This document shows, piece after piece, positions 291 to 43,667 of a stretch of 49,384 nucleotides of DNA (position 1 is its first letter; each line of letters begins with the position of its first letter). The translations under genes were made by a program, and so were the position numbers. The notes under the pieces are model-generated. The model saw only the letters and a list, made by a program, of their open reading frames with translations, ran no database searches and had not been told where the DNA came from. The stretch spans positions 1 to 49,384 of the forward strand of contig JWZX01003011.1 in assembly GCA_001275005.1 (NCBI GenBank), read 5' to 3'. This stretch comes from Chrysochromulina tobinii. Taxonomy: Eukaryota.

Positions 291-3200
291 CCAATCCTCA
301 TCTTCTCCATTGACGGGTCAACTTCAGTTTCGTTCCTTCTTGTCGCCGGAAAGGCCACATACCTCAATGCCAATGGGCCAGCAGACACGCTCCATGCGGG
401 AGACATCTTCATCTTTCGACCGTGGAAGACGCACGGCACATGGGCAGGCGCTCCAAGCATCTCCACTGGTGCTAATTGCAATGGTGCGGCCTCCGTCTTC
501 CGAAACGAGCTGAGCGTCAGCATTCATGACTCAGGCTACACGCCTGGGGTCGATGCGCGGCATGGAGGTCGCGGAAACCCTGGTCGCTTCGGAGAGATAG
601 AGTTTGTGATGCGCGTCTACGGGCTTCATGGATACGAATGGCAGGGGGAGGAATGTACCTACTTCCTTTGCTTCGCCCACTTGCCGCCAGCAAGTGATGT
701 GGCTGTTACCGACGCTCACTTCACGCCGATCCCGTACATTACGCTCTACGTGCAACACGAGCCACCCTCCGCGCCGCCGCCTCTACCGCCGCCGCCCTCC
801 CCGCCACCCTCCCCGCCGCCGTTGCCACCACCGCCGTCGCTGCCACCGCCATCGCCGCCACCGCCCTCGCCGCCACCCTCGCCACCGCCCTCGCCGCAAC
901 CCTCGCCACCACCATCTCCACCTTCCCAGCTGCCTCTGTTCCCGCCCATCAGCCCCGGTGGCTTGAGCACAGGAGGCTACTACGTCGACGTTGCGCTTGT
1001 CTTCCAATCTAGCTCAGGATCTGGTCTGGACCAAACCATCATCGACCAAATCTCCGAGGACCTCGTCGGCCAGCTCGCAGTTTATATGGCCACGAACCTC
1101 TCTTGGTATCGGCCGGCCCCGACCTCACCCCCTCCGGAGCCTACCTGGGGCGTGGCTAACAACGGCAGCTACGTCCACAATAGCAGCTACGTCCACAATA
1201 ACACGCACGCTGCCCCCAACTCCAGCTCGTTGCGAAATCCACCTGCATCACCGCCGTCCCCACCTCCACCCTCGCCGCCCCCACCCTCACCGCCGCCCTC
1301 TGTCGCTCCCGAACCGCCTCCTTCGCCTCCGCCACCCTCGCCGCCTCCACCTTCACCACCAGCAGTGGGTCGCAGGCTGTCATCGATCTGGGTTGGACAT
1401 GCTCGCGAGATTCTCCCCGGAGAGCTCCTTCAGTTAGAGACCTCGGTCGTCAATCTGCACCCGCGTCGACGTCTCGCAACGCCCTGCACGCAAAACGCCA
1501 GCTCGAATGCCTCCATGCAGGAGACCGTCATCGTCACCAGGATCCTCATGAGAACGCGTCTTGCCTTCTCGACCTTTATGAACGTGATGGCGCAAGAGGA
1601 GCCGCCTGAGATCCAGCTAACGGTCACGACGAGCAACAATCGTACACTCGTTCCGTGTGCTAGGCCAGCAATCATCAGCTCCGGGGTTGGCTACATCGCA
1701 GGCCCATCGCCTCCACCTGCGTTGCCTTCATCCGTGCCTCCAGCGGCACCATCTTTTTTGCCACCACGCGTTGCCCCTCGCATCACCCGCGCTAGGCTGC
1801 TGGCATCGCAGCGGGTAGCCCTCGTCTTCTTCTCCACCGCAGTCGTCTCGGCACGTGAAGGCGTTACTGCTCCATTGGACGGGGATCATTTTCGACTTTG
1901 GCTCTCTCCCGGTCCAATATCGCTCACCGGCTGGAACCTGACGCAATGGGCCGAGGATTTCAACACGACAGCCCTCAACGCGAGCGCGAGGCCAGCGGCA
2001 GCCAGGCGACTCACAGAGCAGCTCGGGGTGAGCCAAGCCGCCTTTGCGCTCCATCTCGAGGCGACGCGTGGCACGGCGGCGGATCAGTCGCAACAGCTCT
2101 ACGTCAGTGCAGCTGAGGGCAGCGTGAAGGACCTCGTTGGGACGCTGATGGGCACCGAGGCTGTCGCGGCTGGGGCAGTAGATCCGTCGATGTTTGCGTC
2201 TTTTGTGGCGGGCACCCCATCAGTTGGTTCTGGCACTGGCACGATAGCAACACTTGTCGCCAGCGCATCGGCAATTCCTGCTGCCTTCGTCTTGGGTGCT
2301 TGGATATATTCTCGTCGGAGACGAAATGCGCGCCTTGTTGCGGAAAAGGCAGCTCCTCCGACGCTGGAACGCGTCGCGATCGTCGTGCGAACCGATGCTG
2401 AGCCGGCGAAGGAAGCGTTGCGACAAGGCAGGCAGCTGTCCGGGAGGTCCAGAACAACCAACATCGCAGCGTTGAAGCGTGCGCTTCCACCTTCTTTAAA
2501 CAGGCCCTTCGTGTTGGGCTCGTTGTTAGTGCCAGCAGCAGCACCAACACCAGACCCGGAGGATGTACCAGCGGTGCTGCTCATGCTCGAGCCTGAGCCG
2601 AAGCCGCCGCCATCAGAGCATCAAGCGCCTCCCTTTCTTCTCCGACCAGAACATGAACCAGTGACTCCGCCATGGTGTCTAGACGCAGTGGATGTACCAG
2701 CGGTGCTGCCCGTCCTCGAGCCTGAGCCGAAGCCCCCACCATCAGAACAGGTGCCTCTCCATCCTCTCCAACCACCACCTGAGCCAGCGCCCCCGCCACC
2801 AGGACCGCCACCAGCAGCACCAACGTCAGACCTGGCAGATGTACCAGCTGTGCTGCCCGTCATAGGGCCTGAGCCGAAGCCCCTGCCACCAGAGCAGGCG
2901 CCACCCCATCCTCTCCAGCCACCACCTGAGCCAGCGCCCCCGCCACCAGGACCGCCACCAGCAGCACCAACGTCAGACCTGGCAGATGTACCAGGTGTGC
3001 TGCCCGTCATAGGACCTGAGCCGAAGCCCCTGCCACCAGAGCAGGCGCCACCCCATCCTCTCCAGCCACCACCTGAGCCAGAGTCCCCTCTACCAGTGCC
3101 GCCAACTCCACCACCAAAACTTGATCCCAAGGACGTACGCCATTGGCTGCCCGTGCTCGAGCCTGAGTCGAAGCCCCCGCCAACAGAGCTCATGCCTGTA

Positions 3201-4802
3201 CCAGCAGCAGCAGCGCTGCAGGATGCCCAGCTTCGACTGCTGCCGCCTCTCCGCTTGGGAAGAGGGATGGTGTCGCAACAAGCCCCGGCGCCGGCGCCGG
3301 CGCGAGCGCTGCAGAACAAAGCCGCGCCGGTACGTCCACCGCCGTCAAAGGAGGCCTTGGAGCGATTCGGGGCGCAGGCTGAGCGGAAGGTGGCGCGTCA
3401 GTGCCTGCTCGTCAAGCTGCGTGTGGCCAAGCGCCGCATCGAGCCGCTCCAGCCTGTGCAGTTCCATGGGAGCAAGCATGAGGGGGGCGTCGACGTGTAC
3501 ATCGAACCTCTCCTAGCCGAGGCGATCTGCAAGGAGGTTGCGGTAGCGCTGCAGATTCTCAATGAACTTCTCGTGGGCAACGGCTTCGCACCTCTCGGGC
3601 TGTGCGTCGAGGGGCACACATCTGCCTCGATCCATGGACACGAGGAGAGCCTGATGATCTCGACCACGCGAGCCGAGCGCTGCGAGACGAGCATCAAGGA
3701 GCACACGCTCGCACGCACCTCGGCGCGCCTTGAGGAAGAGGAGCACGCGATGATCGCCAAGATCGCGGAGGGGCGCCTGCTCACCATCGACGACCGCACC
3801 CAGTTCCCAAAAGGGCGTGGGCGGGAACGGTCGGTCGCACAGGCAGCAGGCGCCACAGGTGTCGTCATGGCATGCACTGAAGAGTTCTGGGCAGATCTTG
3901 GTGTGATTGGCAACGCGAAACTGGGAAAGCGCCTCACCTCCCTGGTCAAGATGGCAAAGGGGTCGACCTTTCCGAACGAGAGCTTCCCCAACAACTCGGG
4001 GCGCACGGGGCAACCGACATGGCACGTGGTCCCTTCCATGGACGCGCTTCAAACAGCAGCTAAGGACATGTCGGTCAAGGCACGTGCCGAGGCCGACCAG
4101 GTGTGGGGTCTCCCGATCGACCAGCTCATCGTCCATCGAGGCTACGGCTCGACGAAACCGCTGCCTGGGTACGACAGCGACGAGAACTTTGAGCAGAACC
4201 GTCGAGTGGAGATGCGCCTGCTCGAGCCAGGGGAAGATGGGTACTGTGGGAGCTTTGCGGAGGCTCAGGTTGCAGCTCGGACTCCTCGCCAGCCAGTGGA
4301 TGCCGCCGCCCCTCCGAGCACGGCGACTGCTGAGACCAATCCAAAGTTGGCGGCATCGGCATGGGTTCGGAGCCATGCACCAGCTGTGGAGAACAAGCAC
4401 CACGCATGGGCGACGCAACCAACGGACGTGACGTGGTCAAAGGTGATCCAGCGCGACTTCCGCTCCAGGCTGTTCCAGACCCATCCGCAGATCCAACCCA
4501 ACCAGCGAAGCTCAGCCGATGACACTGCCAGCAGCGGCAGCTCCGGAGGCAGCCGGAGATCGCGTGTTGCAGCGCCATCGCTCGAGGTCAGCGCGGAACG
4601 GGAGCCGTTGGCGCTTCCGTTGCTCCTGGCTCAGGTGCTGCAACTCACGACCACTGCTCTGTCCATTGCTGCCGCGCCGGTCAAATTACCGGTCAACTAT
4701 CCCTCTCCCTCTTCCGGCACCGATTCCGCCTCCTCGTCCTCCCGCTCATTGGACCCCACATTTCAGCGGCCAGACCACACGAGTCGTGAAGTGTGGATGT
4801 GA
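1..4802 (+). CDS. Large Pro/Ser-rich single-pass membrane protein with C-terminal OmpA-like domain (5'-partial)
   Basis: The frame is open from the window start (PSPPP repeats). It has SPPP extensin-like tracts, a hydrophobic segment (ATLVASASAIPAAFVLGAWIY followed by SRRRR, ~2245-2325), Pro-rich tandem repeats, and OmpA-C-like motifs 'VEGHTS...ISTTRAE' and 'GYGSTKPL...EQNRRVEM'. Confidence 0.75.
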   Translation, partial: PSPPPSPPPPSPPPPSPPPSQPPSPPSSPPPSPPPPSPPPPSPPPPSPPPCSTPQSPPPPSPPPPSPPPRPPPPSPPPPSPPPPLPPPPSPPPTPPPILIFSIDGSTSVSFLLVAGKATYLNANGPADTLHAGDIFIFRPWKTHGTWAGAPSISTGANCNGAASVFRNELSVSIHDSGYTPGVDARHGGRGNPGRFGEIEFVMRVYGLHGYEWQGEECTYFLCFAHLPPASDVAVTDAHFTPIPYITLYVQHEPPSAPPPLPPPPSPPPSPPPLPPPPSLPPPSPPPPSPPPSPPPSPQPSPPPSPPSQLPLFPPISPGGLSTGGYYVDVALVFQSSSGSGLDQTIIDQISEDLVGQLAVYMATNLSWYRPAPTSPPPEPTWGVANNGSYVHNSSYVHNNTHAAPNSSSLRNPPASPPSPPPPSPPPPSPPPSVAPEPPPSPPPPSPPPPSPPAVGRRLSSIWVGHAREILPGELLQLETSVVNLHPRRRLATPCTQNASSNASMQETVIVTRILMRTRLAFSTFMNVMAQEEPPEIQLTVTTSNNRTLVPCARPAIISSGVGYIAGPSPPPALPSSVPPAAPSFLPPRVAPRITRARLLASQRVALVFFSTAVVSAREGVTAPLDGDHFRLWLSPGPISLTGWNLTQWAEDFNTTALNASARPAAARRLTEQLGVSQAAFALHLEATRGTAADQSQQLYVSAAEGSVKDLVGTLMGTEAVAAGAVDPSMFASFVAGTPSVGSGTGTIATLVASASAIPAAFVLGAWIYSRRRRNARLVAEKAAPPTLERVAIVVRTDAEPAKEALRQGRQLSGRSRTTNIAALKRALPPSLNRPFVLGSLLVPAAAPTPDPEDVPAVLLMLEPEPKPPPSEHQAPPFLLRPEHEPVTPPWCLDAVDVPAVLPVLEPEPKPPPSEQVPLHPLQPPPEPAPPPPGPPPAAPTSDLADVPAVLPVIGPEPKPLPPEQAPPHPLQPPPEPAPPPPGPPPAAPTSDLADVPGVLPVIGPEPKPLPPEQAPPHPLQPPPEPESPLPVPPTPPPKLDPKDVRHWLPVLEPESKPPPTELMPVPAAAALQDAQLRLLPPLRLGRGMVSQQAPAPAPARALQNKAAPVRPPPSKEALERFGAQAERKVARQCLLVKLRVAKRRIEPLQPVQFHGSKHEGGVDVYIEPLLAEAICKEVAVALQILNELLVGNGFAPLGLCVEGHTSASIHGHEESLMISTTRAERCETSIKEHTLARTSARLEEEEHAMIAKIAEGRLLTIDDRTQFPKGRGRERSVAQAAGATGVVMACTEEFWADLGVIGNAKLGKRLTSLVKMAKGSTFPNESFPNNSGRTGQPTWHVVPSMDALQTAAKDMSVKARAEADQVWGLPIDQLIVHRGYGSTKPLPGYDSDENFEQNRRVEMRLLEPGEDGYCGSFAEAQVAARTPRQPVDAAAPPSTATAETNPKLAASAWVRSHAPAVENKHHAWATQPTDVTWSKVIQRDFRSRLFQTHPQIQPNQRSSADDTASSGSSGGSRRSRVAAPSLEVSAEREPLALPLLLAQVLQLTTTALSIAAAPVKLPVNYPSPSSGTDSASSSSRSLDPTFQRPDHTSREVWM
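2562..3200 (+). repeat. Coding tandem repeat, ~5 units (periods 129,147,147,147 bp)
   Basis: Units start at gatgtacca/gacgtacgc (2562, 2691, 2838, 2985, 3132) and encode DVPAVLPV..PEPKP.P.EQ.P.HPLQPPPEP. Units 3 and 4 are nearly identical over most of their length. Confidence 0.9.
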
Positions 4803-5047
4803 GTGGAGGCGGGACGGCTTGAATTCTCAAGTGGGCCATCTTGCAACAGTCGTACTCGACTAACCTCAAGCACGAGTATGGAAAAGTAGTAGTAGACCGC
4901 GGAGTGCTGCATTCAAAAAACTGCACCAAAAACAGAGTTGCTGCCCGTGCGCGCGTTGTGTTAGGGTTTGAAGTTGATTTTTTGGCGGGAATCGCTGAAG
5001 ACCAAAGTTGATCGATTCAACTGACCTTTTAAGTAGACTGCTTTGCT

Positions 5048-6274
5048 ATGGCAACCGGTGTGATGGCGTCGTCAGAGCTGCGTGAAGCAGTGGCAGTGGG
5101 CGTCTGGTTCGTCGGCATGGTGACGCTGCTGATGCGGGCTCAGGCCCGCCCTCGTACACCGGGCATCGCTACACGTATCGACACGCATCACTTGCAAGTC
5201 GGAAAAGGGCGGCGATCTCGCTTTCAGAACTCGCAGGTGCCACCCATATATTGTGCGGCGGGATCACGCGAGTACCAGGCGGTGATTGCGACCATACTCG
5301 ACTCGAGCGATGTCGTGCTCGAAATCGGCTGCCAGCTGAACAGTCTGACGAGGCTCATGTCGGAGCGGGCCTCCGCGGTCGTGGGCGTAGACCTGGACAG
5401 GAAGGCGCCCACGACCTCGGAGCTGCGCTCAAACGGATTCTACCGGAAGCACAGTGATCCAGCCGAGTTGGGGCTATCCAATGTCGCCTTCCACCTCATG
5501 GACACATGGGACCTGCAAATCCTGCTCGAGGCGGCACGCGCCGGCCCGCACGCTGCCGTGAGCATCGTCGTCGTCGATATGACCGTCGTGCTTGGGAATG
5601 ATCTCGTGCTCGAGGTGCTCGCGCTGTTACGGGCGCTGCATCGGCTACTCTCGCCGCGCGCGCTCGTCGTCAAGTCACGTGCGCTCGCCGGCCTACAGCA
5701 CCGGCTGCGTCCCGCGCCGGCGGCCTGCCCACTTTCCGACGAGCTGCAGCGACGTGTGCTCCTCATAGCAGCCGACCTGGTGCACGACTATCGGTGCGCG
5801 GCTCTCAGCCGGCTGCATCTGCTGAAGCCGGGCGAAAGCGCACTCGAGATTGGGTGCCACGTCGGCGCGAGCACGGCGCTCCTCGACCAAGCGATTGCGG
5901 CTCGCGGCGGCGGCCGCTGCGTGGGCGTCGACGTGAGCGACGCCATCATCGCGCGCGCACGCGCGCTCCACCCGAATGTACTCTTCGAGGTCGCGGACGC
6001 GTGGGATGCGGCGAGCCTAGTGAGCAGCCTTGCGCGATGCGGCGTGGGACCGCCGAGTCTACTCCTGCTCGACGTTGGCGGCCTCTCGGGATCCAGCGGC
6101 ACGCTCGACGCCCTCGCCCTCGTGCGAGTGCTCTGCGCTCTCTTCCATTCCAGCCTGCGTGTGCTCGTCATCAAGAGCAGCTGCATGCGGACCCTCGCTA
6201 TGCAACTGCGACCCACGCGCGAGGTGGTGCCACCGGACGCCAAACAAGGCCAATTCGGGCGCAGCGATCATTGA
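5048..6274 (+). CDS. Protein with two tandem class I SAM-dependent methyltransferase-like domains
   Basis: Two copies of motif I (VLEIGCQ / ALEIGCHVG), each followed by VGVD, D(T/A)WD, a hydrophobic-strand D and (V/I)KS. Confidence 0.75.
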   Translation: MATGVMASSELREAVAVGVWFVGMVTLLMRAQARPRTPGIATRIDTHHLQVGKGRRSRFQNSQVPPIYCAAGSREYQAVIATILDSSDVVLEIGCQLNSLTRLMSERASAVVGVDLDRKAPTTSELRSNGFYRKHSDPAELGLSNVAFHLMDTWDLQILLEAARAGPHAAVSIVVVDMTVVLGNDLVLEVLALLRALHRLLSPRALVVKSRALAGLQHRLRPAPAACPLSDELQRRVLLIAADLVHDYRCAALSRLHLLKPGESALEIGCHVGASTALLDQAIAARGGGRCVGVDVSDAIIARARALHPNVLFEVADAWDAASLVSSLARCGVGPPSLLLLDVGGLSGSSGTLDALALVRVLCALFHSSLRVLVIKSSCMRTLAMQLRPTREVVPPDAKQGQFGRSDH

Positions 6275-6426
6275 ACAAGAGCGTTCTCTCCTGCATTTCA
6301 CGCCCCGAAGCTCGACGCCCCTCCTCAACCTAATCCTGCGTGGCCTACCAGGTAGATTCCGAGTAGGCGGCGAGTGTTGACAGCCGATTCACACCGAAGG
6401 CCGAAACCGCCACGTGTCATAACAAA

Positions 6427-7563
6427 ATGGCGAGTGACCCGCCTCAATTCATCATCGTCTCGTGCGTGAAGTCACGGGCCGAGCTGCAATCCATCGAGCA
6501 TGCGGCAGTCGTCCGCGACTTTTTGCCATCGCTCGTCAAGACAGTCACTCTCGAGGAGCGCCGCGCGTGGCGCATCAGCCTCTACCTGTGCGCTGATGAT
6601 ACTGATCAGTTCTACGTGAGCCAGGCTGCGGCTCTCCGCAATGCGAGTGCGACGATCGCGCCGTGGCTGACGTTGCGGCTGCTCTTCTACACGGCCACAC
6701 AGAATCGCGTTCCCAATCGCGAAGCGGCACTTCAGGCCTATGCTGACGGGGCGGAGTACCTGCATCGCACGAATGACGACATCTCGTTCATGAGCTCGCA
6801 TTGGCTGACTGACGCCGTGACGGCGCTGCGATCCCTCAGCCCGCCCAATGTTGGCGTGGTGGGCCCGAAGGTGTATGGCGATGGCATCCGCGGCGGCGCG
6901 ACGACCCTCGACGTCGTGCATCGCACCCACCTTGACATCTTCCATGACTACTACCCGCCGCAGCTTGACAACTGGTTCGTCGATGACTGGATCGCCTTTA
7001 CGTACACGCGCGGACGCAAGCGACGCACGTTTGTGCTCGCCGGGCACAAGCGCTTCCCTTCATTGTTTTGGCGCGTGCAGCACGTCTTCACGCATGGGCG
7101 CCGGTACAAGGTAGCGATGGCACAAAAAGGGCTGCTTCCTGCCCTGATCGAGTGTGGTCGCGACGCCGTGGATGGATGGATCAATCACACTGGGAGAGCG
7201 GCTGCTGCTTGCGCGAGCGGTGCGGCTGCGCCACCGCCATGGCCTCGCGTCTCTTGTCGTGCCGAGGTCCAGCTGCCGACCGCCGACCGGAGCGCGCTTG
7301 CATCAGGCTGGCCCGACGCCTACACGCCCGTGACGGCGCCTGCTTGGGGGGTGAGCGCCGTGACGAGTGCCTCAAAGCGAGCCTCCGCGCCCAATCGTAC
7401 GCGCGCGCACCACGACGTGCCGCCGCCCGAGCAGGTGTGTCGGCCGCGGCTCGAGGCCATCCGACCGCTCGAGAATGCGGGATTGTACAAGCAGGCCGCC
7501 GGCTACTGTGCGCAGCTCCTGCCTATCGATCGGGGCAGGTGCATGGCCACATCCTCCCAATAG
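6427..7563 (+). CDS. Putative GT-A fold (GT2-like) glycosyltransferase
   Basis: Motifs 'YLHRTNDDI', 'PPNVGVVGP', 'VHRTHLDIF..YYPPQLDNWFVDDWI', recalled as typical of a widespread algal GT-A family. Confidence 0.6.
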   Translation: MASDPPQFIIVSCVKSRAELQSIEHAAVVRDFLPSLVKTVTLEERRAWRISLYLCADDTDQFYVSQAAALRNASATIAPWLTLRLLFYTATQNRVPNREAALQAYADGAEYLHRTNDDISFMSSHWLTDAVTALRSLSPPNVGVVGPKVYGDGIRGGATTLDVVHRTHLDIFHDYYPPQLDNWFVDDWIAFTYTRGRKRRTFVLAGHKRFPSLFWRVQHVFTHGRRYKVAMAQKGLLPALIECGRDAVDGWINHTGRAAAACASGAAAPPPWPRVSCRAEVQLPTADRSALASGWPDAYTPVTAPAWGVSAVTSASKRASAPNRTRAHHDVPPPEQVCRPRLEAIRPLENAGLYKQAAGYCAQLLPIDRGRCMATSSQ

Positions 7564-21747: not shown

Positions 21748-23109
21748 ATGCTTGGGACCTTCCTCCACCTTGTCTCGGCAGCAGCTTTGACGCCGACGCT
21801 GCACTTTGCGCATCGTTCTGTCTCAGCACCTCGATGCCCTCCTGCCGTGGTGAGTATGAGTGGCGAGCACGAGCCCGCGAAGCCTCTCGTGCATGAGCCA
21901 TCGCAGCACGAGCTGACAGTTTTGGATGCGTCGGCCATCGTTGCGGGCTCAGTTGTGGGCGGCGGCTTCTTGGCGGTGCCACTATTCACCGCCCCGATAG
22001 GCGTGCTTCCGTCCGCGACAGTATTTGCTGTCACGTGGGGGCTTCTCGTCCTGTGCGGCCTCGCTTACACCGAGGCCGCCGCCGCAGTTCTGGCCAATGA
22101 TGAGACGGGTGAGACGGGTGAGCGCGCATCAGTCCTGAGCGTCTCGCGTCGCTACCTGGGCACCCCGCTCGCCACGGTGCTGGCCGTTGTCTTCTTTATG
22201 CAGATGCTCATAATTGCGACCGCCAACCTCGTCAAAGCCGCCGAGCTCATCAGCGTTGTGTTTCCTGCGCTGCCGCATGGCCGGAGCATCGTACTGCTGG
22301 CAACTATCTTTGGTGTCTTCAATCTGGTCGCGACCTCACGCGTGATGGCGTCGGTGAACACCGCACTCACTGGCACCATGTGCGCCGGTTTCCTCGCGTT
22401 CTTCGTGGCCGTGGCCACCAAGAGTGCGCCGCCGGCGTCGGCGGTCCTAGCCAACCCGCAATGGAGACTGCTGCTGCCGCAGGCCGGCTGGGCTGTGCCG
22501 TTGTTCGTGAACACGCTGCGCTTCGGCGAGGCTGTGCCTGTAGTAGTCGGGCAGTTTGGGCTGCGGCGGTTGAGCAAGGCGCGCCTCGCCGTCGTCGTCG
22601 GCTCACTGGTGCCGATGCTACTCGCGGTCGGGTTGAGCGTTGCGGGCAGAGCCCTTAGCCTCGCAGGAATGAACAAGGCCATCGATCCGCTCATAGATTT
22701 CCTGCAGACGCCCGGGCTGGGCGCGCCAATCGTGCTCGTCAGCGCCGGCGCGATCGGCAGCACGCTGCTCGGAGTGCTCCTCGCGACCTCGCAGCTGCTC
22801 AGGGACTCATTTCGGCTCAGCAGCCCTCGCGTGCTCCTGGGCGCGCGTGCCGTCGTGCCGATCGTGATCGCAAGTCTTGCATGCCGCAGCACCGGGCTGT
22901 ACCTCCGGCTACTCGCCTTTGCCGGCGCCTTCCCGTCGATCGTGCTCTACGCTCTGCTCCCGCCAATCCTCGCGCTCGCGGCACGCCGCCAGACGGGCGG
23001 GTTGGCGAGCGGCTTCGAGGCGGTGCCCGGTGGCCGGCGGACGCTGCGGCTGCTCGTGCTGCTCGCGTGCGGCCTGCTTGGTGTGAACGCGTGGCTCTGG
23101 CTGGTCTGA
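21748..23109 (+). CDS. Tryptophan/tyrosine permease family (HAAAP) amino-acid transporter, probably organelle-targeted
   Basis: 'ASAIVAGSVVGGGFLAVP' TM1 signature and ~11 TMs. The N-terminus looks like a signal peptide plus transit peptide. Confidence 0.85.
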   Translation: MLGTFLHLVSAAALTPTLHFAHRSVSAPRCPPAVVSMSGEHEPAKPLVHEPSQHELTVLDASAIVAGSVVGGGFLAVPLFTAPIGVLPSATVFAVTWGLLVLCGLAYTEAAAAVLANDETGETGERASVLSVSRRYLGTPLATVLAVVFFMQMLIIATANLVKAAELISVVFPALPHGRSIVLLATIFGVFNLVATSRVMASVNTALTGTMCAGFLAFFVAVATKSAPPASAVLANPQWRLLLPQAGWAVPLFVNTLRFGEAVPVVVGQFGLRRLSKARLAVVVGSLVPMLLAVGLSVAGRALSLAGMNKAIDPLIDFLQTPGLGAPIVLVSAGAIGSTLLGVLLATSQLLRDSFRLSSPRVLLGARAVVPIVIASLACRSTGLYLRLLAFAGAFPSIVLYALLPPILALAARRQTGGLASGFEAVPGGRRTLRLLVLLACGLLGVNAWLWLV

Positions 23110-23506
23110 ACCGGTTGGGCGGACAACAGCCGTAGTGGCTGCATCTCTCTCATGGGCCTCAGTTTGGGTGCGCTGCATGTGTGCAGAGCCGCCGCCGCGC
23201 CGCCGCCTCCACGTCTTCTGAGCGCTGTGAGTGGAGATCGGAGAGCGCTGAGAGAACGGAGATCGGAGTCGAGTGGAGAGTGCAGCCGAACCCAGTAAAG
23301 GCATTCTTTTTCATCGCCAGCTCCAATCGAGGACGCTATACCTCGGTAGACCTTACTGACTATACTGTACGGTGTACGCTGTACCAGAAACATACTGTCT
23401 CTGCCATGAGATGACGTTTGCTTATGCTTTTGCGAACGAACTGACTCTCACCTCTGGAGGCGTGGAGGGTAGCTGTGTCACATTCCATCAGTAACATTTA
23501 ACCGCC

Positions 23507-24956
23507 TCACCTGCTTCGCAAGCCAGCTTCAATGAGCAGATCAAGCACATCATCAGGAAACTTCATCCTGTGCTTGTTCAGCCACAGCAGCTGCAAGACA
23601 AATCGCTGGGTGGTGACGTTGAACATCAAATGATCTTTGCGAGACCAATTGACCATATCCCAGACTTTGACCGTGTTGTCGTCCGATCCAGACACAATCT
23701 TGGTCCCGCCTGGGGAAAACGCGACCGAATTGATGTCCCTGCTGTGGGCGTTCGTCTTCTTGCTCATCAGCTCCAGTTTGGCTGCCATGCAAGGCAGCAG
23801 GTGTCAGTTTTGGCCAAGGAGGGGCATTTCGAGGGCTCGCGGTGCACCCGAATCCCAGACTTTGATCGTCTTGTCCTCCGATCCGGACACGATCTTGGTC
23901 CCGTCCGGGGAAAACGCGACCGAGAAGATCCTGCCGCTGTGGGCGTTCGTCTTCTCGCTCAACTGCACCATCGTGCCTGCCAGACAAGCCAGCAAGCGTC
24001 AGTTTTGACCAAGGAGAAGTGATTTGAGGGCAAAAGCACACCCGAATCCCAGACTTTGATCGTCGTGTCGTCCGATCCGGACACAATCTTGGTCCCGTCC
24101 GGGGAAAACGCCACCGACCTGATCCAGTTGCTGTGTGCGTTTGTCTTCTCGCTCAGCATCTCCAGCTTGCCTGCCAGACAAGCCAGCAAGCGTCAGTTTT
24201 GGCCAAGGAGGCGCGATTTGAGGGCTTGCGGCGCACCTGAATCCCAGACTTTGATCGTCCGGTCGTCCGATCCGGACACAATCTTGGTCCCGTCCGGGGA
24301 AAACGCCACCGAGTTGATGCAGTCGCTGTGGGCGTTCGTCTTCTCGCTCAGCAGCTCCAGTTTGGCTGCCAGGCAAGCCAGCAGGCGTCAGTTTTGGCCA
24401 AGGAGGGGCAATTTTGAGCTCGCGGCGCACCAAAATCCCAGACTTTGATCGTCTTGTCGGCCGATCCTGACACAATCTTCGTCCCGTCTGGGGAAAACGC
24501 CACCGACATGACGAAATGGCTGTGGGCATTCGTCTTCTCGCTTAGCATCTCCAGTTTGTCTGCCAGACAAGCCAGCAGGCGTTAGTTTTGGCCATGGAGG
24601 GGCGATTTTGAGCTCGCGGCACACCTGAATCCCAGACTTTGATCGTCTTGTCGTAAGATCCCGACACGACCTTGGTCCCGTCCGGGGAAAACGCCACCGA
24701 CTGGATCCAGTCGCTGTGGGCGTTTGTCTTCTCGCTCAACAGCTCCAGTTTGTCTGCCAGGCAAGCCAAATGGCGTCAGTCTTCGCCAAGGAGGGGCGAT
24801 TCGAGGCTCCGGCGCACCAAAATCCCAGACTTTGATCGTCCCGTCGTCCGACCCCGACACAATCTTCGTCCCATCCGGGGAAAACGCCACCGACCTGACG
24901 ACGTAGCTGTGGGCGTTGGCCTTCTCCGCTACACAGTTGATGAGCGTCGCGATCAT
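23507..24956 (-). CDS. 7-blade WD40-repeat protein (352 aa when spliced), one repeat per exon, with C-terminal F-box/SOCS-like tail
   Basis: Exons (minus strand): 24956-24818, 24753-24625, 24559-24431, 24365-24237, 24170-24042, 23976-23848, 23781-23507. The five internal exons are exactly 129 nt (43 aa). Splicing the six GT-AG introns gives an uninterrupted frame of 7 x 'AHSxx(I/V)xSVAFSP(D/G)GTK(I/V)VSGSxDxT(I/V)KVWD'. Confidence 0.9.
23660..24930 (-). repeat. Tandem array of ~194-195-bp exon+intron units
   Basis: Introns at 23782-23847, 23977-24041, 24171-24236, 24366-24430, 24560-24624 and 24754-24817 (64-66 bp) are mutually homologous: GTG(C/T)...branch ACT(G/A)AC...TGGCAG. Confidence 0.95.
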
Positions 24957-25661
24957 CCTGCGAACAAGGGAGAAGAAGAGAGGCTTTAGGCTGCATGCGT
25001 GCATTCGGCAGCATGGAGATATGGGACCACAAGCGGCTGCAAGCTCGAAGGGCGCTTGAAGAGCCTCGGCGCAGACATGCAACAGCCAACAGAGTGCCGC
25101 AAGGATGAGGGGACTCGCGTGCGGCGTGTGGCTCCGAAGCTTATCGCGAACGGAGAGAGTCGCAGGCCCTTGAGAGGCAGCCCAGCTCGGGGTCTCAGGA
25201 TTGGGCCGTCACGTGGTAGTGAAGCGCGCGGGGATGGAGAGGAGGGAGGCGGACTGGTCGGCGGCGGCGCGCGCGCGCCGCGCGACTGCGGAAAGACACG
25301 CGGGAAAAACCCACAGTCGTGAGACGCATGTGTGCTCCCTCCAGAGATGCAGGAGAGCCCGCGGGGCACAATGGAGGAAAGCACCTGAGCGAAGGCGGTG
25401 CGGTGTGCGCGTGCAGCGATCGCACTAACGCACGTTGAGCACGAAGAGCGACGGAGCGCGCAGCGCACCGAGCAAGAGAGTATACTGTACGACGCTCCCC
25501 GTGTGGCACAAAATCTCGCGATCGATGCACGCAGCGTCCCTCGCCTTGGGCTTTCGCCTTATCGCCGTTCACATGAACAGGTGGGCACGTCAGAAACTTT
25601 ATTTTAATATACATGTCCCCCCAAAAACTTCTCCGTGCGCACTAATGCGGAAATACAGCCA

Positions 25662-26729
25662 ATGCAGGTGATCACCGCGTTGACTTTCGCAATGTGCGCG
25701 CCGCCGACGGCCAAGTGCGGACCAAAGGTATCGCGGCCCATCACGGCCGCAAAGGCAGCCGCATTTGACGAGGCCGCTTCGCGCGGGTATACTCTGCCGT
25801 GTGTGCTGCTCGCGCGGCCTTTTGATGCAGGCAACGTAGGCTCAGTAGCGCGCGGGATGCTTAACTTTGGTCTGTGGAACATGCGGCTGGTCGAGCCAAT
25901 AGCCGACGAGAAGAGTGATGAGGCCATCCTCAGGGCTAGCGGCGCCGCACCAATCTTGAAGCGCGCCGAGACCTTTGGCTCTATGGCCGACGCGACAGCA
26001 GACCTGCAGCTCGTGCTTGCGACGACCGCACGCCCACGTGAAAGCCGCATCCCGGTCCACAGCCCACGCGAAGCGGTCAGCATCGCCGCTGCGGCGATCT
26101 CACGTGGCGAGCGCGTTGGCCTCCTCTTTGGCAGCGAGAAGAACGGGTTGAGCAACGACGAGCTCACCTATGCCCACGGAATCGTCACCATCCCCACCTT
26201 CCCGGGCTTTTCGAGCCTCAATCTCGCCCAGGCCGTGCTGCTCATCTGCTACGAGTGGAGCACACGCGAAGGAGGCATTGCCAACGACGCCAACACGGAC
26301 GATGCCGCTGCTGCTCGAGCTGCGCAGGCATACGCCATGCAGCAGCCGACGCAATTGGACGTGGCGCGCGCGGCGGCGCAGGCGGCTGAAGCCGAGCAGA
26401 GCAACGTGGCGGCGCCGCTCAAGCAGATCGACTCGCTCTTTGAATGGTGGGAGGCCACACTGTGGCGAGTCGGCTTCTTCGGCGCCGGCCGTGGCGTCCA
26501 TTCCGCGTACGGTGAATCCGAGGGGCTGCAGCAGGAGAAGTCGCGGGCGGCGGCGGCGATGGCGAAGCTCCGTCGCGCGATCATGCGCGCCCAGCCGAGC
26601 GTGAGCGAGGCGGCACTGCTGCGTGGCGCGTTGCAGACGATGGCGAGCCCAAAGGAGTGCAGCCGTAGTGATGGCGACGAGGAGGGAGCTCGCAGTGACG
26701 ACACAGAGTGCGAGAAAGGTGAGAGCTGA
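25662..26729 (+). CDS. trmJ: TrmJ/LasT-family SPOUT tRNA (C32/U32) 2'-O-methyltransferase, probably organelle-targeted
   Basis: Motifs 'VLLARPFDAGNVGSVARGMLNFG', 'LATTAR', 'LLFGSEKNGLSNDEL', 'IPTFPGFSSLNLAQAVLLICYE'. N-terminal extension. Confidence 0.85.
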   Translation: MQVITALTFAMCAPPTAKCGPKVSRPITAAKAAAFDEAASRGYTLPCVLLARPFDAGNVGSVARGMLNFGLWNMRLVEPIADEKSDEAILRASGAAPILKRAETFGSMADATADLQLVLATTARPRESRIPVHSPREAVSIAAAAISRGERVGLLFGSEKNGLSNDELTYAHGIVTIPTFPGFSSLNLAQAVLLICYEWSTREGGIANDANTDDAAAARAAQAYAMQQPTQLDVARAAAQAAEAEQSNVAAPLKQIDSLFEWWEATLWRVGFFGAGRGVHSAYGESEGLQQEKSRAAAAMAKLRRAIMRAQPSVSEAALLRGALQTMASPKECSRSDGDEEGARSDDTECEKGES

Positions 26730-28251: not shown

Positions 28252-30973
28252 ATGAACCCATCTCTACAACGCAAGCTGCGCCGCTCCATGGAGCCCGAGT
28301 CGGCGGAGACGCTCGCCGCCTTGCGCTCGTTCGACGCCGAGCTGCTCCCTGAGAACACGGTCAGCTCGCGCCGCGCGCTGCTCTCGCGCATCGAGGTACG
28401 TGGCCTCACGCTCAGCCACTCGCTGCTGTCCATGTTTGGCGAGCTCCAGACGGCGCTCGACGCGGCCGACGCCGAGGCCTGCTGTCTCGCCGAGGCGTGC
28501 GGCTCCATCTCAAAACAACTCCAAGACAGCCGTGCGGCGACCGAGATGCTGCTCTTGCAGACGGAGCGTGTGCGCAAAGAGCTTGCGGCGACAGAGCGAC
28601 GCGCCGAGCTCACAGTCGCATTTGAGCGCGCGTACACGCTCACCGAGGACGAAGAAGAGCTTCTCAACGCGCCCTTTGACGCGCAGTCGCCCTTTGGGCC
28701 CGCATCCGAGCTCGCGCCGCTGCTGGCGGTGCTGCAGCGCGTGCACGAGATCCACGCACGCGCCAAGGCGCTGCTGCTGGGGCCGTACCAGCGGCTGGGC
28801 CTCGAGCTCACGTCGTCGATGGCCGCGCACGAGGAGCGCGGGCTCGGCCTCCTCTACCGCTGGGTGCACGAGCAGTGCCGCGTGCTGCCGCTCCAGGCAT
28901 CGGCCACCTCGCTGCGTCCCCTCCGCCAGGCGCTCGAGGCGCTGCGCCACAAACCAACGATGCTCAGCTACTGCCTGAACGAGGTGGTGCGCTGCCGGCA
29001 GCAGCCGCTCCTGGCCGCGTGGAGCGCCTCGCTCGGCGCCGCCGACGACGCCGACGACGCGCTCGACACCGCGCGGCTGCGCGCCCTCGACACGCTCGAC
29101 ACGGCGCTCCGCACGCTCCGGTCGGCCCTCGTGGCTGAGACATCGCTGCTGCGCCAACTGATGCCGCCAGCGGCAGCGGAGGCGCCGGCGGGCGAGGGGG
29201 GTGAGCCCGTCGAGGGTATGGGCCTGGCGAGCTCGCTCAGCTCAGCGACGGAGCCGATTGCCTCTTCGCTTGCTGGCCACGTGCGTGTCTTCTTGCGCGC
29301 TGCCCAAGAGGGCACGTCGCTCGTGAGCCTGGGTGTACAGCTCGCCAACCTCCACCGGCTTGCCGGTTTGTTCGAGGTCCATGGGCGCGTGCTCTGCCCG
29401 ATGCTAGGCCTCTCCCTCGAGGCCGCTGAGGCCGCCGCCACCGCCGCCACCGCTGCCGCAGCCGCCGCCGCCGCCACCCCCCCCACCACCGCCCCCGACT
29501 CTGCATCCGCCATCGATGGAGATGCCGCCGCCGGCGGCGCTCCGCGGGCGCCCGCGGCAGCGCCCCTCGCCACGGCCATCGCCAACGGGCTCGCCGAGAG
29601 CTCCGCCGCCCTCGAGCGGCGGTTGGGCGCCGTGCTGAGCGCTCTGGCGCGCGCGTCCGAGGGGGCTGGCGCGTCGGTCACGCCGAGTGCCGCGTCGCGA
29701 GGCTCTCTCACCCCTTCGGAGATCGTGGCTGAGGGTGTGCGCGCTCTCGAGGCGCTCATCCATGCACACGCGGCCCTCGTGCTGAGCGCCGCGGCCGTTG
29801 CCTCCGCCGACGAGGCGGCGACGGCACTCTCTCGCGCCTCCGAGCGTGGCGCGAGCGCGCTGCAGCGGCTGACCATCCAGGTGCTCGCCACGTGCCATGC
29901 AACCTCTGATGACCTCTGATGACCTCTGATTGCCTCCCTCGTTGCGTGCAGGTGCTCGCCACGTGCCATGCGACCTCTGATGACCTCTGATGACCTCTGA
30001 TTGCCTCTGATGACCTCTGATCGCCTCCCTCATTGCATGCAGGTGCTCGCCACGTGCCATGCGACGGCGGCGGCCCGCAGCGGCGCCCCGGGCATGCCGC
30101 GGGGGAGCACTGGCGCCTCGTCTCTCACGGGGCTGCTCGCCCTCCCCGGGGGAAGCGGCGGTGCTGCTATGGGCGCGGGCGCCGTCGCGGGCGGGCTAAC
30201 GTCTCCAGAGAAGCGAGTTTTGCTCCTCAACTCCCTTGAGCTCTTGCATGCCGCGCTCAACAGCGGGCGCGCGGCGGCCCCCATCACGGGCACGACGCCC
30301 TCCGCTACGGCCGCCGCTGCCGCCGCCGCCGCGACCGAACGCCTCGTCGGCCCGAGTCGACCGGCGGTGGAGAGCGCCATCGAGGCTGCTCTGGCCGAGC
30401 TGGGCCGGGCGGCCGCTGAAGAGCTCATTGGCGAGTGCGGGCTCGGAAGCAAGCTGGCGGCGCTGCAGACGGCGGAGGCGCAGCCGCACTTGCCGATGGC
30501 CAGTGTCCTCGGGCTCGAGCCCCTCGCCCTCGCCACCGCCATGCGCTCCTTTTATGCGACGCTCTTCCGGCGCGGAGATGCGCTCGTGCCGGCCGCCGAG
30601 AAGCTCACGGCGGCGCCTCTCCGCAGGCGCGCCGTCGCGGCGGCCGCGCGGACGCTCGCCTCGACGCACGCGCACATCCACGCGCTCGTTCGGCGCAAGG
30701 GCTCGGGCTACGATGCGCCTGAGACAATCCTGCTCCATTCGCCCGAGGAGGTCGAGACGCTACTCGATGTGATGCCGCCGCCAGCTCCAGCCCCACCGCA
30801 GCCACCTCCCTCGCCCCGCGCCCCTGTGGCATCTGCACCACCACCACCACCTGCGACCCCCGCTCCACCACAGCCACCACCTGTGACCCCCGCTCCACCA
30901 CAACCACCACCTGCCCCGAGCGTGCCGCTGCCATCCGAGCGTGCCGCTCCTACCCCTGCTCCTGCTCCGACCA

Positions 30974-35717: not shown

Positions 35718-38353
35718 ATGGCGCCTGCGACAAAGGCCACGACGCAGCGCACCGAACCTGCCACGGTCGTCGTCGGTGTCAGCGAGCTGCTGCTCGCGAA
35801 GAACACTAAAAAGGCTCGCGTGCGCGTCGAGCTTCCGGATGGCCTGGCCACGGCGCAGCAAACGCCGGCCATCGACATGCAGGGCGGAAATCGCTCAGTG
35901 CGTGTGGACTGGTCGATCTCCATCCCTATCCAACCGGGAGGCTCAGCATGGACGGCGCTCGAGGCGGCGCTCGAGAGGCGTGCACAGCCCGAGGCGGCCG
36001 CGATCCGCTTCACCGTGCTCGACGAGAGTACGGGAGTGATCGGCGACGCGGTCGTGGACCTGTCGCGCCTCGCCGAGTACGGGCGATATGATAAGGAATC
36101 GCCCAAGATGACGCTTAACGTCGTCGACAAGCGCGGCGTGGCGCACGGGCAACTGATCGCTCACGTGCAGGCGCTGGAGGCGGTGCGGCTCGTGCTAAAG
36201 GGGGCCCCATCGCCACCGCCGCCGCTACCGCTGAGCATCGAGCCGAAGGTGAAAAAGGCCTTTGAGACCTTTGACAAGAACGGCGACGGCAGCATCGACG
36301 CGGACGAGCTGCGCGAGGCGCTCAAGTACCTCGGGCTGAACGCGTCGGCCGCGCAAACCCGCGAGGTGCTCGAGCGCTACGACACGGGCTTTCGCGACGG
36401 CAAGCTCGACTTGGGCGAGTTTGCTCGCCTCGTGCAGGACTTGAACTCGTTCACGGGCGGCGGCGGCGCCTTGGATGGTGGGATGGGGACGGCCGACGAG
36501 CGCGTGCGTGTGGCCTTCTCGCGCTTCGACGTGGATGGCAACGGGCGGCTGGATGCAGTCGAGATCAAGCAGGCGCTCGCGACGCTCGGCATGGTCGCCA
36601 GCTCATCGGAGGCCGTCGCCGTCCTCCAAAAGTACGACACAGACCGCTCGGGCGGCGTCGAGCTCGCCGAGTTCGCACAACTCGTCAACGACCTGATCGC
36701 CTTCCAAGGTGGCGGCAGCAAGGACATCCCACACGAGGTGCGCAAGGCGTTCGCGCACTTCGACAGTGACGGCAACGGGCGCATCGACGCCTTCGAGCTG
36801 CGCACGGCGCTGCATCACCTCGGCGTCGAGGCCTCTTCCGCCCAGGCTCTGGCCGTGCTCAAAAAGTATGACGTGGACCGAAGCCGCGAGCTCGACATTG
36901 ACGAATTCGCGAAGCTCGTGATGGACGTGCGAGAGTTCCAAAAGGGGGTGAGTCGCGACAAGGTGCTCGAGCAGCTCAAGCTGCCCCAGGTCGTCATGCT
37001 GCTGAACAGGCATCGCACCGCGCTCGATGAGCTCTTCTCCGCCTTCGCGCGCCGTGACGAAACCTTCGTGCTCGCGAGCGGGCTCGCGCACACTGACGAG
37101 GAGCTGCGCGCGGCTTTCGCCACCTTCGACCCTGAGGGGAGCGGCGCCATCGACGCCAAAGCGCTCGGGGGCGCGCTCGCGCGCCTCGGCGTGCCCACGA
37201 ACGGCGAGCAGGCTGAGAGGGTGTTGGCGCGCTACCAACCAGGGAGTGGCTCGAGTATGGTTGGCCTCTCGGAGTTTCGCGCTCTGGTGGCCGACTTGCG
37301 CCGCTTTGCCACGGCCGCGGCGCCGGAGCCGTCCGCGGCCAAGGGGGGCGCCGTGCTGAGCGAGGCGACCTCGCGCATGCTCGGGGTGGAGGAACTCCTC
37401 TCGATGTGCCACGGCTTCCGTCTGGTGCCCGATAGGCTGCGTGAGGAGGAGGTGAAGACGGCCGTGCGGGAGATGCAGCCGAGCTCAACAGCCGTGGGGC
37501 AGCTGCAGCCCTTCAAGCGGCTCTTCTTCGATGAGGTGCTGCTCCGAATGGCGCACGTGGTGGCCAGCCGTACTGGAGGAGTTCAGAGCGCCGAGCCACA
37601 CGTGCGGCTCGAGGAGCTCTTTCAGTTCATGAGGCTCGACACGGTCGCGGCGATGCGCATGCTCATGCGCACGCACATGCTGATCGAGGCATGCACGAGC
37701 GGCGAGCTCGCGCAGGTGCGCCACCCTGATGACATCTGATTGCGTCTGATTGCGTCTGATTGCGTCTGATTGCGAGCTCGCGCAGGTGCGCCGGCTGCTC
37801 GGCGAGGGCGCACCCGTGGATGGCCGCGGCTACGACGGCTGGTCCCCGCTCCACCGCGCGGCCGCGTACGGGCATGAGGAGGCTGTTGAGGCACTTATCC
37901 ACGCCGGCGCCTCGTTGCCGCTGAAGACGCCGGACGGTTTCTCGGCGTTGCACTGGGCGTGCGAGTACGGGCACCCGGGCGTGGTGCGCCTGCTGCTCAA
38001 GGCACGTGCGCCCGTCGCCGACGTGAGTGACGAAACCCTCTGGACGCCGCTGCACCGCGCCGCCCTCGACGGCCACTTGGCCGTCGTCAAGCTCCTCTTA
38101 AGTGAAGGTGCACCCGTGGCCGTGCGAGACCGCGAGGGCGACACGCCGCTGCACGACGCCGCGCGCAACGGCCACTTGGCGGTGGGTCAAGGCACTGGTG
38201 GCCGCGTGGCCCGTGGCCACGCCCCTCGATGAGCCGAACCACGTGGGGCTCTCGGCTCTCGAGCTCGCGCGCCGCGGCAGTCGCGGACCCGTCTACGAGT
38301 TTCTGCAGGAGAAGACGAGTCAGAAGCGCAGCTCGGGCAGCATGTACCTGTGA
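35718..38353 (+). CDS. C2-like + multiple EF-hand + ankyrin-repeat protein (intron 37716-37785; apparent +1 frameshift at ~38185)
   Basis: EF loops DKNGDGSIDADE, DVDGNGRLDAVE, DTDRSGGVELAE, DSDGNGRIDAFE, DVDRSRELDIDE and DPEGSGAID. Ankyrin repeats follow the phase-0 intron. The last repeat continues in ORF 38102..38353 if one G is removed at 38184-38186. Confidence 0.8.
37716..37785 (+). other. 70-bp GT-AG intron containing (GTCTGATTGC)n, flanked by a 21-bp direct repeat
   Basis: gcgagctcgcgcag|gtgcgcc at 37702-37722 and 37772-37792. Removing the intron joins the two ORFs in frame. Confidence 0.9.
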
Positions 38354-42679: not shown

Positions 42680-43667
42680 ACAGCGGGCGGTCCGCTCATC
42701 GTCGGCGCAGAGGCACGATGAGCGCTCACCGCGGCGCTCATCGCAATCAGTGGCAATCAGTGGCAATCAGTGGCAATCAGTGGAGCTCTCACCACAGCGC
42801 TCACCACAGCGCTCACCGCGGCCGACCATCACCCCACCCAGACCGAGGTCGAGTGGCCCGTCGTCCGTCGTAGCCGCGAGCCTGCAGAATCTGCAACTCT
42901 GGCCGCCGGCGACGGCGCCACTGCCTGTACATCCGAAGACCGGATTGGACCGCTTCGGTAACGGTAGCTCCGCTCGCGCGAGCAGTAACGAGCTACCGGC
43001 GATGACCTCGCGACCGGGTACGGCCTCGCGGCCTCCCTCACGTGGCGGAGGCTTCTCTCTGAGCGGTCCGCCCTCGCGACGACCACACACGGCCGAGGCT
43101 GCGCCACTCTCTGTCGAAGGCTGCTACTCCGAGCCGTCCTCGCGCCCGCCCTCGGCGGCACCAGTCACGGCTGCCCACGTAGCACAGCACGATTGGCCCT
43201 CAGCGGCGCCTTCGCGCCCAGCGTCCGCCAATGTGTGGGCTGACGTGTCACACCCACGCCGGAGCGCCGCGCTGAGCGCTGCGACCGCTGAAGAAGACCT
43301 CGACGCCCTCGCTTCGTCAAAGCCAGCTGTGGAAGCGGCCCCAGCAGCCTCCAGCGGGCTCTCTCAGTCACGTCCCTCGTCGAGCGGCCTCCGACCCGTT
43401 CGGATCAATCGGCGGTGGGTGCATACGGCACCCTCGCGACCGGTGCGCCGCAGCACCCTCCAAACCGGCTCAGACTCCCCATGGATGCCCTTCCTTGCGC
43501 CCATGCGGAGCAAGCAGTCAGCCGATGACCCCGCCGTCGATCCGCGGCTGCTCACCAGCGCGTCGGTTGTCAGCATTGAGCCGGCGCTCAACAGCAGCTC
43601 CGTCGGCAACGCGCTCACAGCCACACATCAAGCGGTCCCTGTGCCGGGAGGGTGGTCGATCGATTAG
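41889..43667 (+). CDS. Hypothetical low-complexity (S/P/R-rich, polyQ) protein
   Basis: 592-aa ORF divergent from the DENN gene, with polyQ at ~42600-42682 and repeated SRP(G/P/S)(T/S)A motifs. No recognisable domain. Confidence 0.6.
42721..42822 (+). repeat. (GCAATCAGTG)~3.7 satellite flanked by 15-bp direct repeat, in frame within CDS
   Basis: agcgctcaccgcggc at 42721 and 42808 (offset 87 nt = 29 codons), with gcaatcagtg repeats at ~42746-42783. Confidence 0.85.

Follow-up and report, generated by a model that had tools for sequence, protein, structure and literature searches.

Two groups of described receptors come closest to the gene reported here. The NWD/HNWD proteins of the fungus Podospora anserina (het-d, het-e as well as het-r) belong to the NOD-like receptors (NLRs) with internally conserved WD40 repeats. 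According to PMC1805685, PMC12222747 and PMC4986451, they exchange repeats within and between members, are positively selected at the four codon positions that are also selected in the algal repeats, and combine NACHT with WD40, as sibling genes in the alga do. The brown algal LRR-ROCO and NB-ARC-TPR receptors, as described in PMC3341825 and PMC11378527, hold one repeat on each of their same-phase exons, show diversifying selection on the binding face, and undergo birth and death of copies and exchange among paralogues; the exon-per-repeat layout is also taken from PMC13449251. The gene analyzed in this study lies on the minus strand, at positions 23507-24956, of a 49,384-nucleotide (nt) stretch of the haptophyte Chrysochromulina tobinii (contig JWZX01003011.1; this whole stretch is called the window). 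Its proposed mode of operation resembles that of the fungal NWD/HNWD receptors and its layout that of the brown algal exon-per-repeat receptors, and it is a member of neither class because it has no NACHT and no LRR or TPR. We consider it probable that the locus is a spliced WD40 gene with seven repeats, belonging to a Chrysochromulina family whose stand-alone and NACHT-linked members draw their exon+intron repeats, with positively selected binding-face residues, from one pool, and that the gene product is a variable sensor that detects foreign proteins inside the cell.

Seven coding exons were identified, and the product of 352 amino acids is open throughout, with no internal stop codon. Exon 1 (24818-24956) encodes the ATG, a short N-terminal strand and WD repeat 1. 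Exons 2 (24625-24753), 3 (24431-24559), 4 (24237-24365), 5 (24042-24170) and 6 (23848-23976) are each exactly 129 nt long and encode repeats 2 to 6. The last exon (23507-23781) encodes repeat 7 in its first part (23654-23781) and, in its second part (23507-23653), a conserved C-terminal tail of 48 amino acids with three predicted helices, followed by the stop codon. Repeat 2 was detected by Pfam as WD40 (E 5.8e-13), repeat 7 was placed by the gene model and Pfam, and exons 1, 3, 4 and 5 were given by the gene model. The six introns, at 24754-24817, 24560-24624, 24366-24430, 24171-24236, 23977-24041 and 23782-23847, are 64, 65, 65, 66, 65 and 66 nt long, respectively; all are of the GT-AG type and in phase 1. 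Identity among the introns was 72-92% (all 15 pairs), about the same as among the exons (70-91% at the DNA level). A 15-nt intron word occurred six times with up to two mismatches, once in each intron, where 0.22 occurrences were expected and none of 100 shuffles reached six. Tandem Repeats Finder reported a period of 194 with 6.5 copies at the gene, and 24 of 42 columns were invariant among the WD repeats of the window. The variable residues of repeats 1 to 7 were YVVR and D-G, DWIQ and Y-K, HFVM and A-K, DCIN and D-R, NWIR and D-T, GRIF and E-K, and RDIN and D-N, respectively. These residues, the seven repeats on separate exons with five internal exons of 129 nt, and the six homologous phase-1 introns agree with a preliminary description of this DNA. 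That description also spoke of one exon per blade, which holds for the sequence repeat and not for the structural blade; by WD40 convention, the sequence repeat consists of strand d plus strands a-b-c. Its seven coding exons were correct, and it overlooked the conserved tail and an intron upstream of the ATG.

Splicing was followed with Logan contigs from three RNA runs and one DNA run mapped on the window. RNA contigs showed CT..AC joints over introns 1 to 4, with sides of 23-31 nt, in 2/3, 2/3, 3/3 and 1/3 RNA runs, respectively, and the DNA run showed zero such joints. Among the RNA matches listed, which are all but one, no joint crossed intron 5 or 6; both introns come from the gene model, and intron 6 fits loose RNA-contig ends only. 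Upstream of the coding region, a joint between 24956 and 25433 in one RNA run revealed an intron of 476 nt (24958-25433). It is preceded by a short non-coding exon (25434-25470), which is 5' untranslated region because it contains no in-frame Met. An intron at this place is common to the stand-alone copies (368-549 nt), and its donor context was present in 14 stand-alone copies among those searched. Paralogues also align to this stretch of the window, so splicing is proven for the family and not strictly for this locus. Joints that resemble exon skipping, such as 24169/24624 in two RNA runs, had sides below 30 nt and also match ordinary paralogue junctions; they are ambiguous evidence for exon skipping, which the preliminary description had proposed as a route of diversification. 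The DNA depth was 344-7052 over the gene and 44-47 on its flanks; this depth sums all contigs and hence is no measure of copy number.

Several features separate the gene from the described systems. In comparison with the Podospora NWD/HNWD genes, each algal repeat of 43 amino acids occupies a single exon and a conserved 65-nt intron lies inside the homogenised unit. Most algal members lack NACHT, have exactly seven repeats and a lineage-specific tail, and belong to a unicellular haptophyte; the algal family is known from sequence alone. The HET cell-death domain was absent from the N-terminus of the WD40 protein of the window, whose ATG leads directly into the WD repeats, and the flanking genes encode a permease and a methylase. 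One WD repeat per exon with a single intron phase throughout, a feature of the brown algal exon-shuffling receptors, was present, whereas Pfam detected only WD40 in the gene and no LRR or TPR repeats with a ROC-COR or NB-ARC domain. Unlike the brown algal receptors, it would form a closed WD40 propeller instead of an open LRR/TPR solenoid, its introns are short and homologous and hold no spare exons, and the repeat number of stand-alone copies is fixed. Neither spare nor inverted repeat exons were found at the window locus or at the 14 stand-alone loci described below. The WRAP and PkwA propellers, which gave the best structural matches to the family model, are likewise amplified from one repeat and have a suggested role in innate immunity (PMC9218822). 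In contrast to the algal family, they are mostly bacterial and fungal, and that source contains neither the word 'intron' nor the haptophyte names searched. What is new here is the haptophyte lineage, the placing of WD40 repeats on single exons whose introns are homogenised, and the existence of a class that has no NACHT and yet uses repeats in common with NLR-like genes. No earlier description of the family was found in the literature on NACHT and WD40 in haptophytes and Chrysochromulina or on single-exon WD40 repeats with homologous introns, a search outside which most subscription journals lay.

The family was gathered from metagenome contigs holding one exact 34-nt intron word, which yielded 97 stretches stored as 95 loci, a lower bound. 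Retrieval by this word raises the apparent intron conservation: nucleotide diversity was 0.119 for all 151 introns and 0.135 for the 120 introns outside the pattern. Assemblies that had identical arrays in common with one another and with the window (locus L071 equals the window) were treated as one strain. The last exon of the gene matched proteins of Chrysochromulina parva and C. tobinii and many metagenome fragments, which supports the haptophyte source assumed in the preliminary description. The splice junctions recur in the C. tobinii gene model KOO35579.1 (P0140), whose repeats are those of locus L055, and P0023 and P0138 are further family members outside the 14 stand-alone loci. The public model of P0023 (KOO20820.1) fuses a three-repeat member, whose locus lies outside the fetched set, to a UDP-GlcNAc diphosphorylase, which is probably an annotation artefact. 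In the strain of the window, 21 arrays were found: at least 14 dispersed stand-alone loci (class A), composed of the 5' intron, the WD repeats and the 48-residue tail, and at least seven other arrays (class B) without 5' intron and tail. The multi-copy family predicted by the preliminary description was thus borne out.

All 14 stand-alone loci contain exactly seven repeat exons and are singletons within the 6-8 kb fetched, and 11 of them splice cleanly to 350-354 amino acids; of the others, L055 has a broken acceptor, L031 carries in-frame insertions and L034 was unscored. Since every complete stand-alone copy of the strain holds seven repeats, expansion, contraction or skipping of repeats is probably not the main route of change in this class. 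In other samples, L023 and L058 have seven repeats, L019 and L035 six, and L059, which is possibly chimeric, three; in the NACHT-linked arrays, the number varies from locus to locus. Among the unique internal exons of the family, 190/192 are multiples of three, and none of the 165 unique 129-nt exons contains a stop codon. The duplicated class A unit extends from about 25440-25474, the homology limit against 13 paralogues, to a few bases beyond the stop codon, and most other copies add a short conserved 3' stretch. A conserved hairpin-like word stands right after the stop codon in most stand-alone copies and is absent from the window copy (23490-23507). A Helitron-like 3' end, suggested by hairpin-CTAG words, was seen by eye in only 3 of 24 downstream sequences and was dropped. 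Locus L031 (4034-4700) and also L024, L016, P0036 and P0119 represent an allele family, found in several samples, in which a GC-rich palindrome is inserted in exon 2 and repeat 3 holds an in-frame insertion of non-WD sequence.

Variation within the repeat is concentrated at few codons. Entropy was highest at repeat positions 14, 15, 17, 33 and 35 (2.2-3.9 bits over the 165 unique 129-nt exons), and the 165 repeats contained 135 distinct four-site combinations. The same five peaks appeared in 112 of 117 last exons retrieved through the tail, independently of the intron. Positions 15, 17, 33 and 35 are spaced 2-16-2, as are HET-E sites 7, 9, 25 and 27, which are positively selected codons, each pair flanking a conserved site (PMC1805685). 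Positions 15, 17 and 33 also fit the top-face hotspots of WD40 repeats (R1-2, R1 and D-1) given in PMC3419727. The assignment to HET-E-equivalent sites on the top face, made in the preliminary description, is thus supported by published position rules and not by coordinates of this protein. The proportion of nonsynonymous differences between pairs (pN) was 0.57 at the five variable codons, compared with a synonymous proportion (pS) of 0.265 and a pN of 0.057 in the scaffold. As neutral yardsticks, diversity was 0.233 at four-fold sites and 0.12-0.135 in introns. For the seven repeats of the window alone, pN was 0.58 (five codons) and 0.024 (scaffold). In a codon model with the four literature-defined sites, the ratio of nonsynonymous to synonymous rates (omega) was 2.4 and 4.1 on two trees, with twice the log-likelihood difference from omega=1 being 21.8 and 45.6, while the scaffold had an omega of 0.17-0.18. 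The four variable codons show positive selection, a result on which the preliminary description had made its reading depend. Local hypermutation was considered and is unneeded, since pS at the variable codons (0.32) is near that of the scaffold.

These values bear on the possibility that the family is amplified neutrally or selfishly as mobile DNA with drifting surface loops, or that mis-assembly is the source of its variation. Such amplification would fit the observations that the duplicated unit coincides almost exactly with the transcription unit, that each copy stands alone in an unrelated neighbourhood, and that a few copies are damaged (the acceptor of L055 and the insertions of L031). 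The pN at the five codons, however, is about twice the scaffold pS and exceeds both neutral yardsticks, which makes drift insufficient; the same sites also recur in fungi, and Pfam found no transposase-like family among the 19 long open reading frames (ORFs) of the window that were scanned. Neutral or selfish amplification is already largely refuted by omega above 1, and we regard it as very improbable. Neither the tail nor the repeat pattern matched viral contigs, and no plasmid match was found.

The repeats of both classes belong to one pool. Mean identity was 0.843 within loci, 0.844 between loci and 0.843 between classes (107 units, 21 arrays, one strain), and the position of a repeat in its array had no effect on identity (0.847 and 0.849). 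The nearest neighbour of a unit lay in another locus for 95 of the 107 units and in the other class for 47. On a tree of the units, the class label required 32 changes, against a mean of 33 after shuffling, and at least 11 changes were forced by well-supported branches. Identical tracts of 192-232 bases linked three of 210 locus pairs, two of the tracts running across classes, and the median longest tract was 49. The translation of exon 6 of the window gene is that of a repeat in the NACHT-linked array L004. Linkage disequilibrium fell from an r2 of 0.23 at 1-5 nt to 0.02 beyond 15 nt, and none of 2000 permutations was as low; one first patch of variable residues was paired with up to five different second patches. 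Decay of linkage within about 15 bases indicates exchange below the scale of the exon, so the exon is not the unit of exchange, unlike in the blade shuffling proposed by the preliminary description.

Turnover was observed directly at L017 and L023, which are orthologous loci from different samples. They are colinear over 3.3 kb with flanks of 91-99% identity, and the inner array is 88-92% identical, with all seven repeats differing at variable sites. Blades thus differ between samples at an orthologous locus with conserved flanks, as had been proposed for comparison. The pairs L042/L013 and L015/L059 showed the same contrast of flank and array on one side, and L024 combines an L015-like start with an L031-like array, out of register. 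All arrays derive from short-read assemblies, and the repeat order agreed in five of five pairs of independent assemblies of the strain. Both classes draw on one repeat pool, and the array turns over at one orthologous locus. The locus is not single-copy, its arrays are not fixed, omega is not at or below 1, and by published position rules the variable residues cluster on one face; these are the four points on which the preliminary description had let its diversification reading depend.

To which proteins the class B repeats belong is seen from their surroundings. An array directly follows a long ORF in L004, L009, L020, L022 and L067 of the strain of the window and in L026 of another sample. 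The upstream ORFs of L004 and L022 matched NPHP3_N (E 3e-29 and 5e-29), AAA_16 and NACHT (E 1e-6) above the Pfam cut-off. In L067 and L026, the NACHT match (E 0.001-0.002) was below the cut-off, and the P-loop and Walker B words were visible. The upstream DNA of L009 and L020 was 92-96% identical to that of L004 and L022, and L044 and L033 have only 430-450 upstream bases in common with L067, a span in which no NACHT was seen. RNA contigs span the NACHT ORF of L022, and in one of four runs (side 23) a joint connects this ORF with the first repeat exon. The start codon of the L004 upstream ORF was not identified, and PADLOC found nothing on two NACHT ORFs. As far as these gene neighbourhoods indicate, NLR-like proteins encoded in the same genome use the cassette as their sensor. 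The stand-alone architecture of the preliminary description is true of the window locus, which has no NACHT; the cassette as such is not NACHT-free, as NACHT proteins of the same strain carry it as their sensor at the C-terminus.

Two subtypes of NACHT-linked siblings were distinguished. Those of the L022 type (L022:5467-6219, minus strand; also L004, L009 and L020) carry, inside the NACHT region and not at the N-terminus, a RelA/SpoT-type insert that is Tas1-like (E 1.9e-4) and is not detected by Pfam. Tas1 itself synthesises (p)ppApp. Among the effector classes listed for fungal NLRs in PMC4986451 is RelA_SpoT. The second subtype (L026:105-4049 and L067:1-3657) has another N-terminal region with a weak RRM match and shares the repeat cassette and the C-terminal cap with the first. 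We take this N-terminal region to resemble HET; Pfam found no HET match. At L009 (5757-7775) and L011, a NACHT-WD array is followed by ORFs with paired cysteines, then by repeat exons in inverted orientation and another terminal exon, which points to rearrangement. The paired-cysteine ORFs are presumably HNH-like, and Pfam gave no match of note.

The common pool raises the question of whether the stand-alone genes act on their own. They might instead assist the NACHT-linked receptors, serve them as decoys or form their reservoir, storing variants to be copied or competing for ligand, with the tail as a structural cap or dimerisation helix. The equal closeness of repeats between and within classes and the two long identical tracts that cross classes fit this proposal, and pseudogenes of Podospora retain intact repeats (PMC1805685). 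A mere reservoir is contradicted by the 11 of 14 copies that splice cleanly and by the seven repeats kept in all 14; moreover, the tail is conserved and stands behind WD repeats even in distant relatives, and family RNA is spliced. Intact copies, a conserved tail and spliced RNA together indicate selection on the protein rather than storage, and we consider a helper, decoy or reservoir role unlikely.

The tail was strongly conserved across the stand-alone family. A profile search of 1.84 billion representatives returned 18 matches, of which two were spurious and one was in an odd frame; the remaining matches stand after a WD repeat or are fragments of such exons, and they include relatives at 47-60% identity. 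In a larger set, 536 clusters carry the tail, the best 120 of the 536 being listed. A model of the C. parva relative P0009 (predicted local distance difference test score, pLDDT, 79) stands for the family; the tail model has three helices (pLDDT 77, predicted template modelling score 0.51), and its best structural match (Z 5.8) was to unrelated helical chains. A Cul2-box-like word (hydrophobic-P-xx-hydrophobic-xxx-hydrophobic) was present in 90 of 91 tails and also in 10% of shuffled tails, so this signal is weak. In a language-model search of the Atlas, clusters of WSB proteins (WD40 plus SOCS-box) ranked next after the family's own clusters (0.85-0.88), which is a lead only; once WD40 clusters were excluded, no SOCS match appeared in the Atlas. 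WSB1/2 and other cullin-RING adaptors resemble the family in that a short helical tail comes after the propeller at the C-terminus, whereas the family tails have no BC-box and no Pfam SOCS_box or F-box. To our knowledge, WSB propellers are not hypervariable. An adaptor of a cullin-type ubiquitin ligase is our best guess for the tail, a tentative one and not an assignment to that class.

Several observations weigh against the interpretation of the family as a variable sensor built from one exchanging pool. The loci L019 and L035, from two other samples, hold the same repeats, and turnover is thus not fast everywhere; L004 and L068 differ at one variable codon despite the same repeat order. Short-read assemblies of such repeats can be chimeric, as stated in PMC12222747. 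Recurrent mutation lowers linkage disequilibrium, and the star-like tree could stem from one fast old expansion. Tree-based omega can be inflated by recombination, whereas the pairwise comparison of pN and pS uses no tree; in 11 pairs of near-identical units, the variable codons had changed to no greater extent than the introns (two differences). For the tail, neither a Pfam match (SOCS_box and F-box included) nor a PDB sequence match of note nor a clear fold match was found, the BC-box (consensus from PMC13342108) was present in none of 91 distinct tails, and the tail of the window itself has G at a nearly invariant C.

We infer an immune or antiviral function for the WD40 family. A variable surface could also serve the recognition of self and non-self, mates, symbionts or prey instead of warding off viruses or parasites. 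Among characterised systems, the nearest one, het-d/het-e, acts in allorecognition (PMC12222747), and the selective agent is not named by the sequence evidence. Against such a role, by eye, no segment resembling a signal peptide precedes the propeller after splicing of the 5' intron, so the protein would be cytosolic. We know of no reason to expect allorecognition through cell fusion in a unicellular alga. NACHT, TIR and LRR genes were induced in virus-recovered cells of another haptophyte (PMC12489294), which is circumstantial for the present family and also speaks for defence. We consider recognition of this other kind quite unlikely.

Under the favoured interpretation, a variable intracellular sensor, point mutation would create new combinations of top-face residues, and short-tract ectopic gene conversion would spread them among the dispersed arrays. 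With the near-identical phase-1 introns, the stretch of homology would be longer and all exchanges would stay in frame, and selection would hold stand-alone copies at seven repeats, which may form one closed propeller. The top face of the propeller would be the putative binder of a protein from a virus, a parasite or prey. NACHT-linked siblings would signal through the NTPase and effector domains. In stand-alone copies, a fixed host partner would receive the bound target through the invariant tail; the likeliest candidate for this partner, though a tentative one, is a cullin-type ubiquitin ligase. A bolder and rather doubtful extension is that one recombining surface pool supplies two immune outputs, namely NACHT receptors with enzymatic effectors (the alarmone-synthetase-like insert) and NACHT-free seven-bladed ubiquitin-ligase adaptors, with the intron acting as a homology anchor, possibly during clonal growth.

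The neighbours of the gene in the window are outside the family. A Trp/Tyr permease-like gene lies on the plus strand at 21820-23109 (Pfam PF03222, E 6e-23) and contains a 103-nt intron (21849-21951) spliced in two RNA runs. A SpoU-type RNA methylase lies on the plus strand at 25662-26729 (PF00588, E 3e-23), head to head with the WD40 gene. About 200 bases (25433-25662) separate the 5' ends of these two genes, which suggests a shared promoter. Elsewhere in the window, a tandem repeat of 147 bp (2691-3104; 2.8 copies, 92% matches) and arrays of related 10-bp units (29902-30027, 37735-37774 and 42743-42783) were observed.

The means by which bloom-forming unicellular algae detect viruses and parasites are for the most part an open question, and the family provides short, easily cloned candidate receptors. 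Each repeat carries a five-residue code of which hundreds of natural variants exist, and the prediction is that differences in repertoire between strains track resistance. The findings extend the diversification strategy of HET-E to haptophytes, with the intron homogenised together with the repeat.

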